Source of the DNA: a virus
Taxonomy: Duplodnaviria > Heunggongvirae > Uroviricota > Caudoviricetes
Direction: 5' to 3' (one strand)
IMG/VR virus record: IMGVR_UViG_2534682294_000008
Length of the DNA: 4,813 bases
This document shows positions 1-4,813 of the stretch, piece by piece. Below the pieces are notes generated by a model. The model did no database searches. It saw only the letters and a list, made by a program, of their open reading frames with translations, and was not told the origin of the DNA. Position 1 is the first letter of the stretch; each line of letters starts with the position of its first letter. The translations under genes were made by a program, and so were the position numbers.

Positions 1-285
1 GTGACTGCGCATACGGGCCACCAGCAGAGGCGGCATTGCCTTTTCGATCGCCGGTAACAGAGCCTGCATTTTTTCAACTGCATCAGGGGTGTCTTTCTCT
101 ATCCAGCGGAAAATTTTCTGGGTATTGCGAGCCAGGGCTTCCGGATGGCTGTCGTCGTACAGTTCAGGAAACGTCATACCCAACTCAAAATAAGCCTGGG
201 TTATTCCAGCTGCCGGAACTTTTTCGCCATCAGGACGCGCCCAGGCATTCATCGCCATGCGGATGTGTTCATGCTTGATTTTCAT
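1..285 (-). CDS. ydaT: YdaT-family regulator (CII-equivalent), N-terminal 95 codons only; gene continues beyond the window start
   Basis: Uninterrupted reverse-strand frame from ATG at 285..283 to position 1 (95 codons; absent from the ORF track because no stop lies inside the window). Translation begins MKIKHEHIRMAMNAWARPDGEKVPAAGITQAYFELGMTFPELYDD..., which I recognise from memory as the N-terminal signature of YdaT-type proteins of Rac/CP-933P-like prophages. G-rich RBS (AAGGGGGG) 4 nt upstream of the ATG. Lies directly downstream of, and overlapping, a Cro-like gene. Confidence 0.6.
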   Translation of the reverse strand, partial: MKIKHEHIRMAMNAWARPDGEKVPAAGITQAYFELGMTFPELYDDSHPEALARNTQKIFRWIEKDTPDAVEKMQALLPAIEKAMPPLLVARMRSH

Positions 286-511
286 GAATCCCCCCTTGGT
301 TAGAAGGCGGATTATGATCAGAATCGGGAATGACAACCGTCGGTATGTGTAACTCATATTTGAGCGCCCCGGCAGTGACTGCCTGAATTAGCAACGCCCA
401 TTTCCACGGAACGTCTTCCCCCCACATGCTGACTGTGGTTTTTGACGTTCCTAGAGCGGCGGCTGTTTTAACAACTCCGCCAAAATAGCCTAATACTTCT
501 GATTTTTTCAT
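269..511 (-). CDS. ydaS: Cro-like HTH transcriptional regulator (YdaS-type), 80 aa
   Basis: Reverse-strand ORF (track ORF 269..559) trimmed to the ATG at 511, which has a GGAG Shine-Dalgarno 6 nt upstream; the in-frame ATGs at 523 and 559 lack one. Product MKKSEVLGYFGGVVKTAAALGTSKTTVSMWGEDVPW... has the Cro/YdaS-type HTH pattern (GG..., LG.S...VS.W). Divergent from the CI-like repressor gene, as in a cI/cro switch. Confidence 0.7.
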   Translation of the reverse strand: MKKSEVLGYFGGVVKTAAALGTSKTTVSMWGEDVPWKWALLIQAVTAGALKYELHIPTVVIPDSDHNPPSNQGGIHENQA

Positions 512-602: not shown

Positions 603-1241
603 ATGAACAAGCAAACAATATCTGAACGCATAACCCAACGTATGCATGCGCTAAACTTGAAAGGCAAAGACCTTGTCAATGCCACTGGCGCATCAAAAGG
701 CTCCGTAAGTCAATGGATGAACGGTGGAGGAGCGCCGTCCTCGCGTTACATAAGTTCACTGGCAAAGATATTGAAAGTAAACGAAAATTGGCTTCTTAAT
801 GGAGGAGAGTTAAATACAGGTGATTCGCTTGATCTATCTTTACCGCCGATAAAAACGGTTCCGCTACTATCACTTCAGCAGGCAGCAAGCTGGAGTGATT
901 ATATGAAAAATTCCTCAATAACCTCTTGTGTGCAGCTTGTCGGAGAAATCCCGGCCAATACCTTTGCTGTTGTTCTAGAGAGTGACAGTATGTCGACATC
1001 TGGTGGTGGAGTTTCCATCCCAAATGGTTCAACAGTTTTTGTTGATCCCGATCGAATCGTACAACCAGGAAATATTGTCCTTGCCTTACCCAAAGGGACC
1101 ACAACGCCTGTCATTCGCAAACTGGAGATAGAAGGGCCGGATATTCTTTTAGTCCCCACGAATCCTCGCTACCCTTCAATTATGCTGGATGATCTATCTT
1201 GCATATTGGGAGTATGCTTTAAAATTCAACAAGATATTTAA
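603..1241 (+). CDS. cI: Lambda CI-like prophage repressor (HTH DNA-binding N-domain plus LexA/S24 peptidase-like C-domain), 212 aa
   Basis: Track ORF 603..1241. The N-domain contains LAKILKV, identical to a segment of lambda CI as I recall it. The linker PLLSLQQAASWSDY aligns with lambda PVFSHVQAGMFSPE. The C-domain has the S24 catalytic-serine motif (E-S-D-S-M, Ser129) and a Lys (K173 in VIRKLE) at the spacing expected of the Ser/Lys dyad, followed by a lambda-like LVPTNPRYPSIML segment. No Shine-Dalgarno: the operator-like site abuts the ATG, consistent with a leaderless transcript. Confidence 0.88.
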   Translation: MNKQTISERITQRMHALNLKGKDLVNATGASKGSVSQWMNGGGAPSSRYISSLAKILKVNENWLLNGGELNTGDSLDLSLPPIKTVPLLSLQQAASWSDYMKNSSITSCVQLVGEIPANTFAVVLESDSMSTSGGGVSIPNGSTVFVDPDRIVQPGNIVLALPKGTTTPVIRKLEIEGPDILLVPTNPRYPSIMLDDLSCILGVCFKIQQDI

Positions 1242-1324: not shown

Positions 1325-1353
1325 ATTGACCTTAAATGTTCGTTTTTCTAAAC
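1325..1353 (+). promoter_or_regulatory. Candidate sigma70 promoter with overlapping operator-like inverted repeat (possible pL/oL equivalent or moron promoter)
   Basis: TTGACC (1325-1330) -17 nt- TAAACT (1348-1353). Immediately upstream and overlapping the -35 is GTTTTGATAAAAAAC (1309-1323), whose reverse complement carries the same ATCAAAAC half-site as the two sites in the cI/cro intergenic region; it is part of a 7-bp AT-rich inverted repeat AATGTTT/AAACATT (1306-1312 / 1320-1326). Confidence 0.35.
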
Positions 1354-1452
1354 TTCATTCATTCCCTCACCCCGCCCCACAGAATGCAGGGCAATACTTC
1401 GAGTTACCAGGCAGTGGTCAGGGGTTAAGTAGCCAGCCCGAGGCGTAAGAAC

Positions 1453-1686
1453 ATGACGGCAGGGTTCAACTTTAATAACTATGCAGCAGGTTTTTGTTCC
1501 GCTACCCCGGCGTTAAGGGGAAATGAGGTCAACATGGATACGCTCAATCTTGGCAACAACGAATCTCTGGTATGTGGCGTGTTCCCCAACCAGGACGGTA
1601 CGTTCACCGCGATGACGTATACCAAAAGCAAAACGTTTAAAACTGAAGCTGGCGCGCGTCGCTGGTTAGCCAGAAACACTGACTGA
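1453..1686 (+). CDS. Small hypothetical protein, 77 aa (alternative start at 1534 gives 50 aa)
   Basis: Track ORF 1453..1686. GAGG 9 nt upstream of the ATG at 1453, and GAGG 5 nt upstream of the internal in-frame ATG at 1534, so the true start is ambiguous. Stop TGA (1684-1686) overlaps the next ATG (TGATG), suggesting translational coupling with the 216-aa gene. No family recognised. Confidence 0.45.
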   Translation: MTAGFNFNNYAAGFCSATPALRGNEVNMDTLNLGNNESLVCGVFPNQDGTFTAMTYTKSKTFKTEAGARRWLARNTD

Positions 1687-2336
1687 TGAGGTTGACGATG
1701 GAATTTAAAGATTTACCTCCTTCAATCCAGGAGATTGCAGCACACACACTTCGTCATCGTCTGAACGAACTTGAATTGGAATCGGTAACGAAAAAAGACA
1801 CTGATAATATGGCTCGTAATGTGCGCGATGCGTTTACCGGATTGTATTTCTGTGCGTCTATAAATAAACACGACTCAGAGAGTGTGGCAAATAAAATTGC
1901 AGAAACGACAGCGCAAAACATCAATACGAAACCAACGGAAGAAGAAATTGATCAGTTTGCTCATGATGCTGGTTTAAAAAACAAGAAAGAAAAATCGCCA
2001 TATGCGGGGAACATGTTTGTTTATGACAATCTCATCAGAATTCGTGGCGAAATTCCGGCGGAATACCTGGCAAGAGTCCATCAGGCATTGCTTAAAAATT
2101 TGGAAACAGAATTATTTGATGGCAACACTAACGGTTTCTTCATGGTATCAGGCCTTGAGAAAGACTGGGATGCAGAAAAACGCTGGAATGTTGCTACATG
2201 GTTATTCAGTAACAGAGCCGCTGCACTGGAAGCTTCGGCATGTATTTGCGGCCTGTTCTTAACAGACCACAAATATAATCTGGATGTGTACAGTTATATT
2301 TACGCTGAACACGGTCCACTCTGGATTGACTGGTAA
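1686..2336 (+). CDS. Hypothetical soluble protein, 216 aa, unknown function (alternative start at 1698)
   Basis: Track ORF 1686..2336 with TGATG overlap to the upstream small gene. The in-frame ATG at 1698 (MEFKDLPP...) has GAGG 6 nt upstream. Long open frame in an AT-rich context with no predicted transmembrane segment and no catalytic motif I can recognise. Confidence 0.65.
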   Translation: MRLTMEFKDLPPSIQEIAAHTLRHRLNELELESVTKKDTDNMARNVRDAFTGLYFCASINKHDSESVANKIAETTAQNINTKPTEEEIDQFAHDAGLKNKKEKSPYAGNMFVYDNLIRIRGEIPAEYLARVHQALLKNLETELFDGNTNGFFMVSGLEKDWDAEKRWNVATWLFSNRAAALEASACICGLFLTDHKYNLDVYSYIYAEHGPLWIDW

Positions 2337-2546
2337 TTATAAGGAAACACCAGCAGGGCCGCGGCGACCAACAGAACGATTAAAATCAATAATGCCATTA
2401 TAAAGGACATTATTTAATTTATCGTAGAATGCTGATTCTGTGAGCCTCAACTCTGAATGAGTTTTTAATAACCCTGATTGCCTGAGTTGATTTACCAGGC
2501 ATTCAATCTGTTTTTCAATAAGCGGATTTCTTTTTTTGTTTGGCAT
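2337..2546 (-). CDS. Small hypothetical protein, 69 aa, convergent with the 216-aa gene
   Basis: Track ORF 2337..2558 trimmed to the ATG at 2546 (MPNKKRNPL...), which has a strong GGAGG 5 nt upstream. Its stop codon (2339..2337) directly abuts the stop of the forward 216-aa gene (2334-2336). No family recognised. Confidence 0.45.
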   Translation of the reverse strand: MPNKKRNPLIEKQIECLVNQLRQSGLLKTHSELRLTESAFYDKLNNVLYNGIIDFNRSVGRRGPAGVSL

Positions 2547-2589: not shown

Positions 2590-2960
2590 CGCTGTCACGT
2601 GTGGTCGTGCGCCGGACACGGATAAGAATCCGGTACTGACAGTTTACTGAAAGGATATTTCCCTGAAAAGTCAGTGCATAACGCGAAAGCGTACGGCGAA
2701 GCTCTTTCCCTTAGAAGGCTTGTCGTTAGATTTCTTCGAACGTGCGCTTCCGGTTGTGGCACTCCGCGAAATGGCGCGGCGGTAAGTATGGCGGGGTTAT
2801 TCCTTCCCCATTGAGGACACCGGGTTGTCAGGTTGACCATACGCTTAAGTGACAACCCCGCTGCAACGCCCTCTGTTATCAATTTTCTGGTGACGTTTGG
2901 CGGTATCAGTTTTACTCCGTGGCTGCTCTGCCGCCCTTTTTAAAGTGAATTTTGTGATGC
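2590..2960. other. GC-rich, hairpin-dense non-coding island (candidate structured RNA or regulatory/recombination region)
   Basis: No credible ORF on either strand; the only track ORF here (2595..2882, -) translates to an R/P/A-rich low-complexity product. Multiple short GC stems: CCGGA/TCCGG (2612-2633), ACGC-GAAA-GCGT (2681-2692, GNRA tetraloop), CCGCG/CGCGG (2764-2779), GGGG/CCCC (2793-2809), a 9-bp perfect inverted repeat (2822-2858), and a GC stem followed by TTTTT (about 2899-2941). Composition contrasts with the AT-rich flanking genes. Confidence 0.3.
2822..2858. repeat. Perfect 9-bp inverted repeat GGGTTGTCA ... TGACAACCC with 19-bp spacer
   Basis: Read directly: 2822-2830 GGGTTGTCA and 2850-2858 TGACAACCC are exact reverse complements. 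Could be an RNA stem-loop or a dimeric protein-binding site. Confidence 0.5.
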
Positions 2961-3034
2961 GGTGAATGCGGCTAAGCGCACGCGGAACAGTTAAAACCAA
3001 AAACAGTGTTATGGGTGGATTCTCTGTATCCGGC

Positions 3035-3055
3035 GTTAATTGTTAACTGGTTAAC
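3035..3055. promoter_or_regulatory. Tandem GTTAAY repeats (GTTAAT, GTTAAC, GTTAAC) upstream of the downstream + strand gene block; candidate regulator-binding array
   Basis: GTTAAT (3035-3040), GTTAAC (3042-3047), GTTAAC (3050-3055) at 7-8 bp spacing; the last two form the inverted repeat TTAAC-TG-GTTAA. Located about 55-75 bp upstream of the start codon at 3111. Confidence 0.25.
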
Positions 3056-3110
3056 GTCACCTGGAGGCACCAGGCACTGCATCACAAAATTCATTGTTGA
3101 GGACGCGATA

Positions 3111-3299
3111 ATGGAAACGTTATTACCAAACGTTAATACGTCTGAAGGTTGTTTTGATATTGGTGTTCTGCTCAGTAACCGGGAGTTTACTGAAGATGCC
3201 ATTAACATGAGGAAATATGAGCCTTATCTGCTCAATGATAATTCCATACTTTCCCGAATTGCTCTTCTTGAACTTGGTATTTTCGGAGAACGTCAATGA
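3111..3299 (+). CDS. Small hypothetical protein, 62 aa
   Basis: Track ORF 3006..3299 trimmed to the ATG at 3111 (METLLPNVNT...), which has GAGGA 7 nt upstream; the longer form would read through the GTTAAY repeat array. Stop TGA overlaps the next start (ATGA at 3296-3299). No family recognised; not Arg-rich, so not an N-type antiterminator. Confidence 0.5.
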   Translation: METLLPNVNTSEGCFDIGVLLSNREFTEDAINMRKYEPYLLNDNSILSRIALLELGIFGERQ

Positions 3300-3484
3300 C
3301 TTCAGCATTTGCACTGATGATGACGGTTTTTCTTATAACGGGTGAATCACAGAATGTGATTACCGGAATTTATGCCAGTAAAGAATCCTGCCTCCAGGCA
3401 AGAGACGAGCAAAAAATTTCTGGTGAATGCCTCCCGGTAAAAAAAGTATCGCTGTACCTGAATAACGAAACACCGGCTGGATAA
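3296..3484 (+). CDS. Small membrane-anchored or secreted hypothetical protein, 62 aa
   Basis: Track ORF 3296..3484 with GGAG 7 nt upstream and ATGA overlap to the preceding gene. N-terminus MTSAFALMMTVFLITG is a hydrophobic segment (signal-anchor or signal-peptide-like) followed by a hydrophilic domain with two Cys residues. Confidence 0.5.
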   Translation: MTSAFALMMTVFLITGESQNVITGIYASKESCLQARDEQKISGECLPVKKVSLYLNNETPAG

Positions 3485-3576
3485 CCCTCCAGCCATATTA
3501 ACACCATACCAACGGATTAAAAATGCCAGCAATGGCAGGGATTTGTTCACCCTTAAATCTGTAATGAGGTTTATCA

Positions 3577-4740
3577 ATGAGCACTGATAAAGAAGAATTT
3601 GCGCTATATTGCGAAGCAAAAAATGACAAAGTCAGAAAACGTCTGGGAATTAAAGGTGGTTTTTACTGGACTACAGCAAAAAAATTATCTGTTGCCATCT
3701 CCCGCTGCATTACCGCAATGGATGACAACGATTATGATGAAGACGACTTTAAAAAACCCGTTCGCGTCCATTTACCCGTTGTGAATGACCTTCCACCTGA
3801 AGGCGTGTTTGATACCGAATTCTGCAACCGATACGAAAAAGGCGGGGAAGATGGCATTACAATGGTATTTATCGCGCCCTCTCCCTCCGTGCAGGAGAAA
3901 CCAGCCAGTACTGACAATACCAACGTCAACGGCGAAGACATGACGGAGATTGAGGAGAATATGCTCCTGCCGGTTTCTGGTCAGGAGCTGCCCATTCGCT
4001 GGCTTGCGCAACACGGCAGCGAAAAACCAGTAACGCACGTTGCACGGGAAGAACTTCAGGCATTACATATAGCACGGGCGGAAGAACTGCCGGCTGTTAC
4101 TGCCCTGGCCATTTCTCACAAAACAAAGCTGCTCGACCCGCTGGAGATTCGCGACCTTCACAAACTGGTACGCGACACTGACAAAGTTTTCCCTAATCCC
4201 GGTAATTCAGACCTGGGACTGATAACTGCTTTTTTCGAGGCATACCTGGACGCTGACTACACTGATCGGGGTCTGCTGACAAAAGAGTGGATGAAAGGAA
4301 ATCGTGTTTCGCGTATCACCCGTACGGCTTCCGGTGCAAATGCCGGTGGCGGGAACAAAACCGATCGCAATCCGAATTTAGTACACACCTTCGATACGCT
4401 GGATGTGGAGATTGCAGCAGCCACACTTCCGATGGATTTTAATATTTATGAAATTCCGGGCAGCGTTTATCGTCGCGCAAAAGAAATCGTCCTGAAAAGA
4501 GAAAGTCCGTTCAAAGAATGGTCCGCAGCACTTCGCGCAACCCCGGGTATTCTGGACTATTCCCGCGCCGCTATTTTTGCACTTATCCGGAGCGCTCACC
4601 CTGAGTTTTATCACTACCCGGGACGCCTTCAGGGGTATATCAACGCCTACTTAACGGAGACTGATCACGAGAACCCCAGCAAGGAAACTCTCACTGCTGC
4701 ACGACATACACCGGAAAAAGATATCCTGGAAGAAGTGTAA
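3577..4740 (+). CDS. Hypothetical acidic protein, 387 aa, unknown function
   Basis: Track ORF 3577..4740, the longest ORF in the window, with GAGG 7 nt upstream of the ATG. Contains an acidic tract ([10 protein letters not shown]) and a Gly-rich loop ([11 protein letters not shown]) that does not fit a Walker A consensus. No family recognised. Confidence 0.75.
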
Positions 4741-4813
4741 GCGTACAGCGAGGGCCGTATTGACGGGGATGTGTTATTCAGCTGGCAGTGCTATGCGCCA
4801 CGGAAGCAGTTCG

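Follow-up and report, generated by a model that had tools for sequence, protein, structure and literature searches.

The DNA analysed here (4,813 nucleotides of one strand, read 5′ to 3′ and hereafter called the window) belongs to a Qin-like lambdoid prophage and carries its dicBF early-left operon, in the O157-type haplotype. Two small overlapping open reading frames (ORF1 and ORF2) lie between the small RNA DicF and a truncated recE-like gene, in the following arrangement (position, strand, feature):

269–511, minus strand: Cro-like regulator occupying the dicC position (Pfam P22_Cro, E = 1.7e-15; RefSeq Cro/CI family regulator)
603–1241, plus strand: CI-like repressor of 212 aa in the position of dicA (Pfam HTH_3, residues 9–68, and Peptidase_S24, residues 113–197)
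1326–1354, plus strand: promoter-like site (TTGACC, 17 nt, TAAACT) from a consensus scan, candidate equivalent of dicBp
1534–1686, plus strand: ydfA-like first gene of the operon (DUF1391; Pfam PF07151, E = 1.2e-29; RefSeq CDS)
1698–2336, plus strand: 212-aa ORF in place of K-12 ydfB/ydfC (RefSeq hypothetical protein; phrog_2151, E = 2e-147)
2337–2546, minus strand: 69-aa ORF (phrog_4274), with a promoter-like site at 2574–2545
2607–2884, plus strand: untranslated DicF precursor region, 90% identical to the sequence that precedes dicF in K-12
2885–2936, plus strand: DicF small RNA with its terminator hairpin (Rfam RF00039, 75 bits, gathering threshold 48, E = 7.6e-16, full length)
2937–3110, plus strand: dicB leader, between DicF and dicB, 98.9% identical to K-12
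3099–3103, plus strand: dicB Shine–Dalgarno sequence GAGGA, read from the sequence, 7 nt before ATG 3111
3111–3299, plus strand: ORF1, dicB, 62 aa, O157-type allele, cell-division inhibitor family
3285–3288, plus strand: ydfD Shine–Dalgarno sequence GGAG, inside the end of dicB, 7 nt before ATG 3296
3296–3299, plus strand: ATGA stop/start overlap of dicB and ydfD, read from the sequence
3296–3484, plus strand: ORF2, ydfD-like, a 62-aa DUF1482 protein homologous to the Qin lysis protein YdfD
3577–4740, plus strand: N-terminal 387 codons of recE/exonuclease VIII (ydfE-like; NCBIfam NF007259, positions 1–388 of 877; Pfam Exonuc_VIII)
4738–4813, strand not assigned: end of an ISEc8 copy (IS66 family); it interrupts the recE-like ORF, which takes its TAA stop from it

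Up to position 4743 the window is 99.9% identical to Escherichia coli O157/O121 chromosomes, in which both ORFs are annotated by RefSeq as coding sequences (WP_000449175.1, DicB; WP_000199475.1, DUF1482 family protein), and its end (4741–4813) matches ISEc8 copies at 100% identity in over 3,400 genomes. The junction between ISEc8 and recE occurs in none of the 274 complete genomes that match the window elsewhere; in these, recE continues. The order repressor/cro, ydfA, DicF, dicB, ydfD and recE is common to the window, to the Qin (Kim) prophage of K-12 and to the complete phages Tritos and Stx2_14040/PPompW; in the phages, recE is full at this place and xis and int come next. Because the gene order matches both K-12 Qin and complete phages, the pair can be assigned to a lambdoid early-left operon, in agreement with the placement proposed in an earlier note on this DNA. 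The start of a YdaT-like gene also lies upstream, together with the repressor and Cro-like genes, and one Citrobacter-type locus has an N-antiterminator-like gene within the operon.

At the regulatory end of the operon, Stx2_14040 has DicA and DicC, Tritos has a short CI repressor and Cro, and the window has a repressor combining a helix–turn–helix with an S24 domain in place of the DicA of K-12. As this S24 autoprotease domain is absent from K-12 DicA, induction of the window copy of dicBF by DNA damage (that is, through the SOS response) is plausible. Of this intact repressor ORF, RefSeq annotates only the last 113 codons (as ‘LexA family protein’), despite identical DNA. The candidate dicBp equivalent lies between the repressor gene and ydfA, which is the K-12 layout; its assignment is positional only, because the promoter scan found no more sites in the window (5) than in shuffled sequence (7.3). 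The 212-aa ORF that follows ydfA had no Pfam match, and PPompW-type phages have a comparable arrangement here, with a different ORF followed by a small opposite-strand ORF. DicF, an antisense regulator of ftsZ and other mRNAs, is 98% identical to K-12 dicF, lies 175 nt upstream of dicB and contains a terminator-like stem (2919–2934) followed by a run of T. The K-12 dicBF operon is tightly repressed, and its transcript starts upstream of ydfA and is subject to both processing, in which RNase III and RNase E release DicF from the precursor part, and read-through (PMC10448788).

Both ORFs are real genes and not chance reading frames, as judged from full-length matches to curated families, RefSeq annotation and conservation. 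The earlier note had described two 62-aa ORFs with Shine–Dalgarno sequences and an ATGA overlap, the second with a hydrophobic start and two cysteines, and all of these features are borne out by the present analysis. The predicted duplexes with the anti-Shine–Dalgarno sequence amount to −5.9 kcal/mol for dicB and −6.6 kcal/mol for ydfD. An alternative start for ORF1 at GTG 3006 would give 97 codons; as it has no Shine–Dalgarno sequence and the family model spans exactly the 62 residues from ATG 3111, we take the latter to be the start of dicB. Judging from the sequence, translation of dicB and ydfD is probably coupled through the ATGA overlap. An ATGA or GTGA overlap is found in five of the seven dicB–ydfD loci compared, with a 1-nt spacer in the other two, and a DUF1482 gene lies directly 3′ of dicB in all seven (that from Citrobacter included), as it does in phage Tritos. 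In a few database proteins, of 92–108 aa, the Pfam domains of DUF1482 and DicB are combined; these fusions presumably arise from a frameshift or from read-through at the stop/start overlap. The 374-nt pair is present at a coverage of at least 80% in 1,020 of 5,426 complete E. coli genomes (4,219 of them have at least some part of it), and 604 records have their best match to the pair at an identity of at least 99%.

ORF1 matches the DicB family along its entire length (Pfam PF05358, residues 1–62 of 62, E = 6.4e-37, 125.5 bits with a cut-off of 27) and the NCBIfam model for ‘cell division inhibition protein DicB’ (NF049927, 114.2 bits, cut-off 100). Like DicB of K-12 (b1575), with which it shares 63% identity, it has 62 residues, lies downstream of DicF and overlaps ydfD. 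The primers published for dicB of O157:H7 match the window exactly (3111–3132 and 3277–3299), so that the allele studied here has already been quantified and deleted in O157:H7, for which both dicB transcripts and a deletion phenotype have been reported (PMC6915034). The N-terminal segment METLLPNVNTSEGC is present in the window protein; residues L5, P6, N7, N9–G13 and F15 are invariant across 17–24 alleles, and the N-terminal 14 residues, L5 included, are invariant or nearly so among alleles and are retained in the window. In K-12 DicB, this N-terminus (residues 1–14, including L5) is essential for activity, the identity of residue 2 (E in the window, K in K-12) does not matter, and the last eight residues are dispensable, whereas removal of 12 or more weakens activity (PMC4967827). 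An AlphaFold2 model shows a small, soluble-looking helical protein at moderate confidence (pLDDT 73), and DicB had no sequence match in the PDB.

Comparison with K-12 Qin shows that dicB itself is mosaic, with an abrupt boundary at about codon 34. Up to this point the two prophages are close: DicF and the dicB leader are 98–99% identical and codons 1–33 of dicB are 88% identical in nucleotides and 79% in amino acids, whereas codons 34–62 (that is, the C-terminal 29 residues) are 47% and 45% identical, ydfD is 55% identical in nucleotides and the next 38 nt are 33% identical, before identity returns to 89% from 3523 onwards. The divergent segment thus covers about 3210–3522 of the window, and the matches to phages Tritos, mEp460 and HannyBb break at the same point. 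Tritos carries the K-12 type and the PPompW phages carry the window type (94% identical to the window in nucleotides, 93% in the C-terminal half of DicB and 82% in YdfD), and further alleles exist. The boundary gives rise to two haplotypes of the C-terminal half of DicB together with YdfD, a detail that is new. As the C-terminal half of the window DicB is 45% identical to that of K-12 and tail deletions weaken the K-12 protein, its partner specificity could differ. A modest lead for work on this operon is that pathogenic E. coli carry a haplotype whose DicB tail and YdfD share about 45% identity with their K-12 counterparts, the proteins used in all mechanistic studies.

ORF2 belongs to DUF1482 (Pfam PF07358, E = 2.9e-15, 56.3 bits with a cut-off of 25, residues 4–61; phrog_1092, E = 7e-34; no NCBIfam model matched). 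It is 45% identical to YdfD of K-12 (b1576; ‘lysis protein’ in RefSeq), which resembles it in length (to within one residue), in its hydrophobic N-terminus, in G16, C32 and C45 and in the stop/start overlap after dicB, and differs from it in the acidic and basic residues of its C-terminal part, which is approximately neutral in the window protein (five K + R and six D + E). The window protein begins MTSAFALMMTVFLITG; its uncharged hydrophobic stretch of 16 residues precedes the first charged residue, E17, and the cysteines are at positions 32 and 45. Word-indexed protein searches reached only close relatives from E. coli, Salmonella and Citrobacter, and an exhaustive search of 1.84 billion representatives showed DUF1482 to be a small family, with 31 clusters at 50% identity. 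Two alignments of these clusters, with 25 and 32 sequences, show G16 (at the end of the hydrophobic stretch), C32 and C45 to be invariant, and F5, L7, T10, E38 and Q39, all kept in the window protein, to be nearly so. A repetitive, secreted-looking protein of 1,031 aa, six repeats of which matched YdfD residues 19–45, was considered as a relative and rejected: the resemblance is that of a short motif with one cysteine (AGIFSSEEGCLNGWDD compared with TGIYASKESCLQARDE), multiplied by the repeats, and is probably not homology.

Expression of the K-12 YdfD lyses cells, and DicB or SulA prevents this lysis (PMC8835842), so that lysis needs ongoing division. A single study reports that YdfD binds IspG with a Kd of 18 µM, on the basis of pull-down, isothermal titration calorimetry (ITC) and FRET with tagged proteins, that overexpression of ispG or supply of HMBPP rescues the cells, and that cysteine mutants of YdfD still bind IspG (PMC8835842). 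The last result indicates that the two cysteines are conserved for some other reason.

The published IspG model requires the C-terminal part of YdfD to be cytoplasmic, and the topology of the protein therefore matters for IspG as a possible target. The earlier note had called the N-terminus of ORF2 a hydrophobic anchor; this is an interpretation, as the hydrophobic stretch alone is observed. No 19-residue window of YdfD scores as a membrane-insertable helix in any of seven alleles, the sums being +3 to +7 kcal/mol (about +6 kcal/mol for the best segment of the protein studied here) in a rough sum on the Hessa scale. There is no basic residue before the hydrophobic run, the flank after it is acidic, and the first basic residue occurs at position 27–29. 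AlphaFold2, given an alignment without the K-12 sequence, models YdfD as a compact beta–beta–alpha–beta fold (mean pLDDT 80), in which a strand of residues 5–12 (pLDDT 82–87) is paired with residues 18–26 and followed by a helix (29–39), a strand (44–47) and a second helix (48–56). Foldseek returned no match to this model (best E = 1.3), and neither the protein nor its profile had a sequence match in the PDB. A second new detail is therefore that the stretch is shorter than a canonical membrane helix requires and is modelled as a beta-strand, so that sequence does not settle the topology: YdfD may be held in the membrane by a short anchor, may carry a cleavable signal peptide that ends at G16 and precedes a periplasmic disulfide domain, or may be a soluble mini-domain. 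The IspG mechanism fits awkwardly with the uncharged hydrophobic N-terminus, the acidic flank and the two invariant cysteines, and is the weakest link of the role proposed for YdfD.

An alternative reading is that YdfD acts outside the cytoplasm, either because its N-terminus is a Sec signal peptide with cleavage following G16 or because it serves as a short signal anchor of N-in/C-out orientation, such that a periplasmic part of about 46 residues with a C32–C45 disulfide would act on an envelope target at the division site and not on IspG. The uncharged stretch has the length of a signal-peptide h-region and no insertable 19-residue segment accompanies it in the seven alleles (by the same rough sums); G16 is invariant and the residue at position −3, in most cases V, I, T or L, would be compatible with signal peptidase I, this reading of the cleavage site being a rule of thumb; and the acidic flank with its late first basic residue favours a C-out orientation. 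The family-wide cysteines, which IspG binding does not need, and the dependence of lysis on ongoing division point the same way. Nevertheless, we regard the reading as unlikely, given that the n-region lacks a basic residue, that the modelled pairing of residues 5–12 with 18–26 argues for a soluble mini-domain, and that the published pull-down, ITC, FRET and rescue by ispG or HMBPP argue for a cytoplasmic target (PMC8835842). Somewhat less probable still is a compound proposal in which the DicB tail and YdfD would form a swappable, co-diverging cassette of matched partners (that is, each tail tuning or neutralising its own YdfD in a manner similar to a toxin–antitoxin pair) and YdfD would be a soluble beta–beta–alpha–beta mini-domain or an exported disulfide peptide rather than a membrane-anchored inhibitor of IspG. 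Divergence of the C-terminal half of DicB does correlate with that of YdfD (r = 0.80 for 21 pairs of seven loci); we rejected this co-variation as evidence of interaction, as the segments are adjacent and simply linked. Were YdfD indeed a soluble mini-domain or an exported disulfide peptide, both the published mechanism and the ‘anchor’ would need revision.

Two further readings concern the pair as a whole or the identity of its second member. That dicB and ydfD are silent relics, with no present function in a prophage damaged by insertion sequences, seems improbable to us: the downstream recE is cut by ISEc8, the integrase is truncated by IS1203 in related genomes and the K-12 operon is tightly repressed (PMC10448788), but both ORFs are intact, the 604 near-identical records and the complete phages keep the pair (the latter together with its stop/start coupling), and the transcripts and deletion phenotype in O157:H7 are those of this very allele (PMC6915034). 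Least credible, and in our opinion very improbable, is the earlier note’s suggestion that ORF2 is a membrane-anchored, Kil-like division inhibitor or a superinfection-exclusion protein. Position in the early-left operon and the hydrophobic N-terminus speak for it; however, the tested member of DUF1482 (YdfD) lyses cells and does not cause filamentation, its lysis is stopped by a division block, and DicB and DicF already provide for division inhibition and exclusion in this operon. In a search of Pfam at E ≤ 1, the two ORFs matched no family apart from DicB and DUF1482, with nothing Kil-like, and neither of them matched a PADLOC-DB model of defence or exclusion at E ≤ 0.1 (that DicB excludes phages was learned from experiments in K-12, not from the PADLOC catalogue). 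A division-inhibition and exclusion module is therefore an apt description of the pair by way of ORF1 (DicB, as known for the K-12 allele; PMC6832061) together with DicF, and an inapt one of the hydrophobic ORF2, whose homology to a protein of known non-exclusion function (the lysis protein YdfD) is what the note itself had named as speaking against its proposal. The note had recognised neither sequence; both belong to named families (Pfam DicB and DUF1482), and the pair is not new.

We thus return to the explanation that we consider very probable, namely that the pair is dicB–ydfD, the distal coding part of the dicBF early-left operon in an O157-type haplotype, with roles like those in K-12 by homology. 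The K-12 roles can, by homology, be assigned to the window alleles with confidence for DicB and with less confidence for YdfD. Given the layout of the locus and the work on K-12, the operon would be silent as long as the CI-like repressor is bound. Upon derepression, a single transcript from the promoter upstream of ydfA would extend through the DicF precursor, and part of the transcription would pass the DicF terminator into dicB and ydfD. If the homology holds, a complex of DicB with MinC would then be directed to ZipA at midcell and the FtsZ ring dismantled, with filamentation as the result, and the same MinC-dependent activity would disable ManYZ and so block DNA entry of lambda-like phages. 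Both steps follow K-12, in which DicB acts with MinC and ZipA and confers a ManYZ-dependent exclusion of lambda, the inhibition of ManYZ by DicB–MinC activity lowering lambda infection about 100-fold (PMC6832061). YdfD, again by homology with K-12, would lyse dividing cells, and if IspG is the target, as reported, the envelope would run short of isoprenoid carrier lipid. DicB, as a block to division, would be expected to postpone YdfD-dependent lysis, such that dicB and ydfD may be viewed as an inhibitor-plus-killer couple.

Early-left operons of other lambdoid phages offer functional parallels to DicB. Lambda Kil and Rac KilR are small early-left-operon proteins that block FtsZ-ring formation and are described as acting on FtsZ itself; DicB resembles them in blocking the ring from an early operon and differs from them in working via MinC and in having no sequence relationship to them (Pfam, E ≤ 1). 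Qin-like phages have their own holin–endolysin cassettes elsewhere. The authors of the IspG study liken YdfD to E of phiX174, A2 of Qbeta and LysM of phage M (small proteins whose block of a step in the supply of envelope precursors lyses growing cells; PMC8835842). YdfD differs from these single-gene lysis proteins in that it shares no homology with them, has another target and lies in the early operon of temperate phages. Among complete lambdoid phages (Stx2_14040/PPompW, Tritos and mEp460), the order dicF–dicB–ydfD is that of the window and leads into exonuclease VIII, xis and int, the difference being that their recE is full-length (with a frameshift in Stx2_14040) and that of the window is cut by an insertion sequence.

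The genes dicB, ydfD and dicF are textbook genes of cryptic prophages, and the pair described here is in this sense already known and ordinary. The useful outcome is rather a corrected assignment of roles, in which division inhibition and exclusion fall to the first gene, and the hydrophobic second is the lysis gene.

Three minor observations concern the distribution of the module and the region that precedes its coding part. The combination of DicF, dicB and ydfD occurs in 39 deposited phage records, isolated temperate phages included, so that the module is not confined to defective prophages; a paper published in 2016 reported no DicB or DicF in about 2,000 phage genomes (PMC5069750). The dicB leader is far more conserved with respect to K-12 (at the identity given above) than the coding sequence after it. 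Over this leader (2934–3143, plus strand), there is also a sub-threshold Rfam match to the Salmonella small RNA candidate STnc100 (34.7 bits, gathering threshold 47, E = 5.6e-5).
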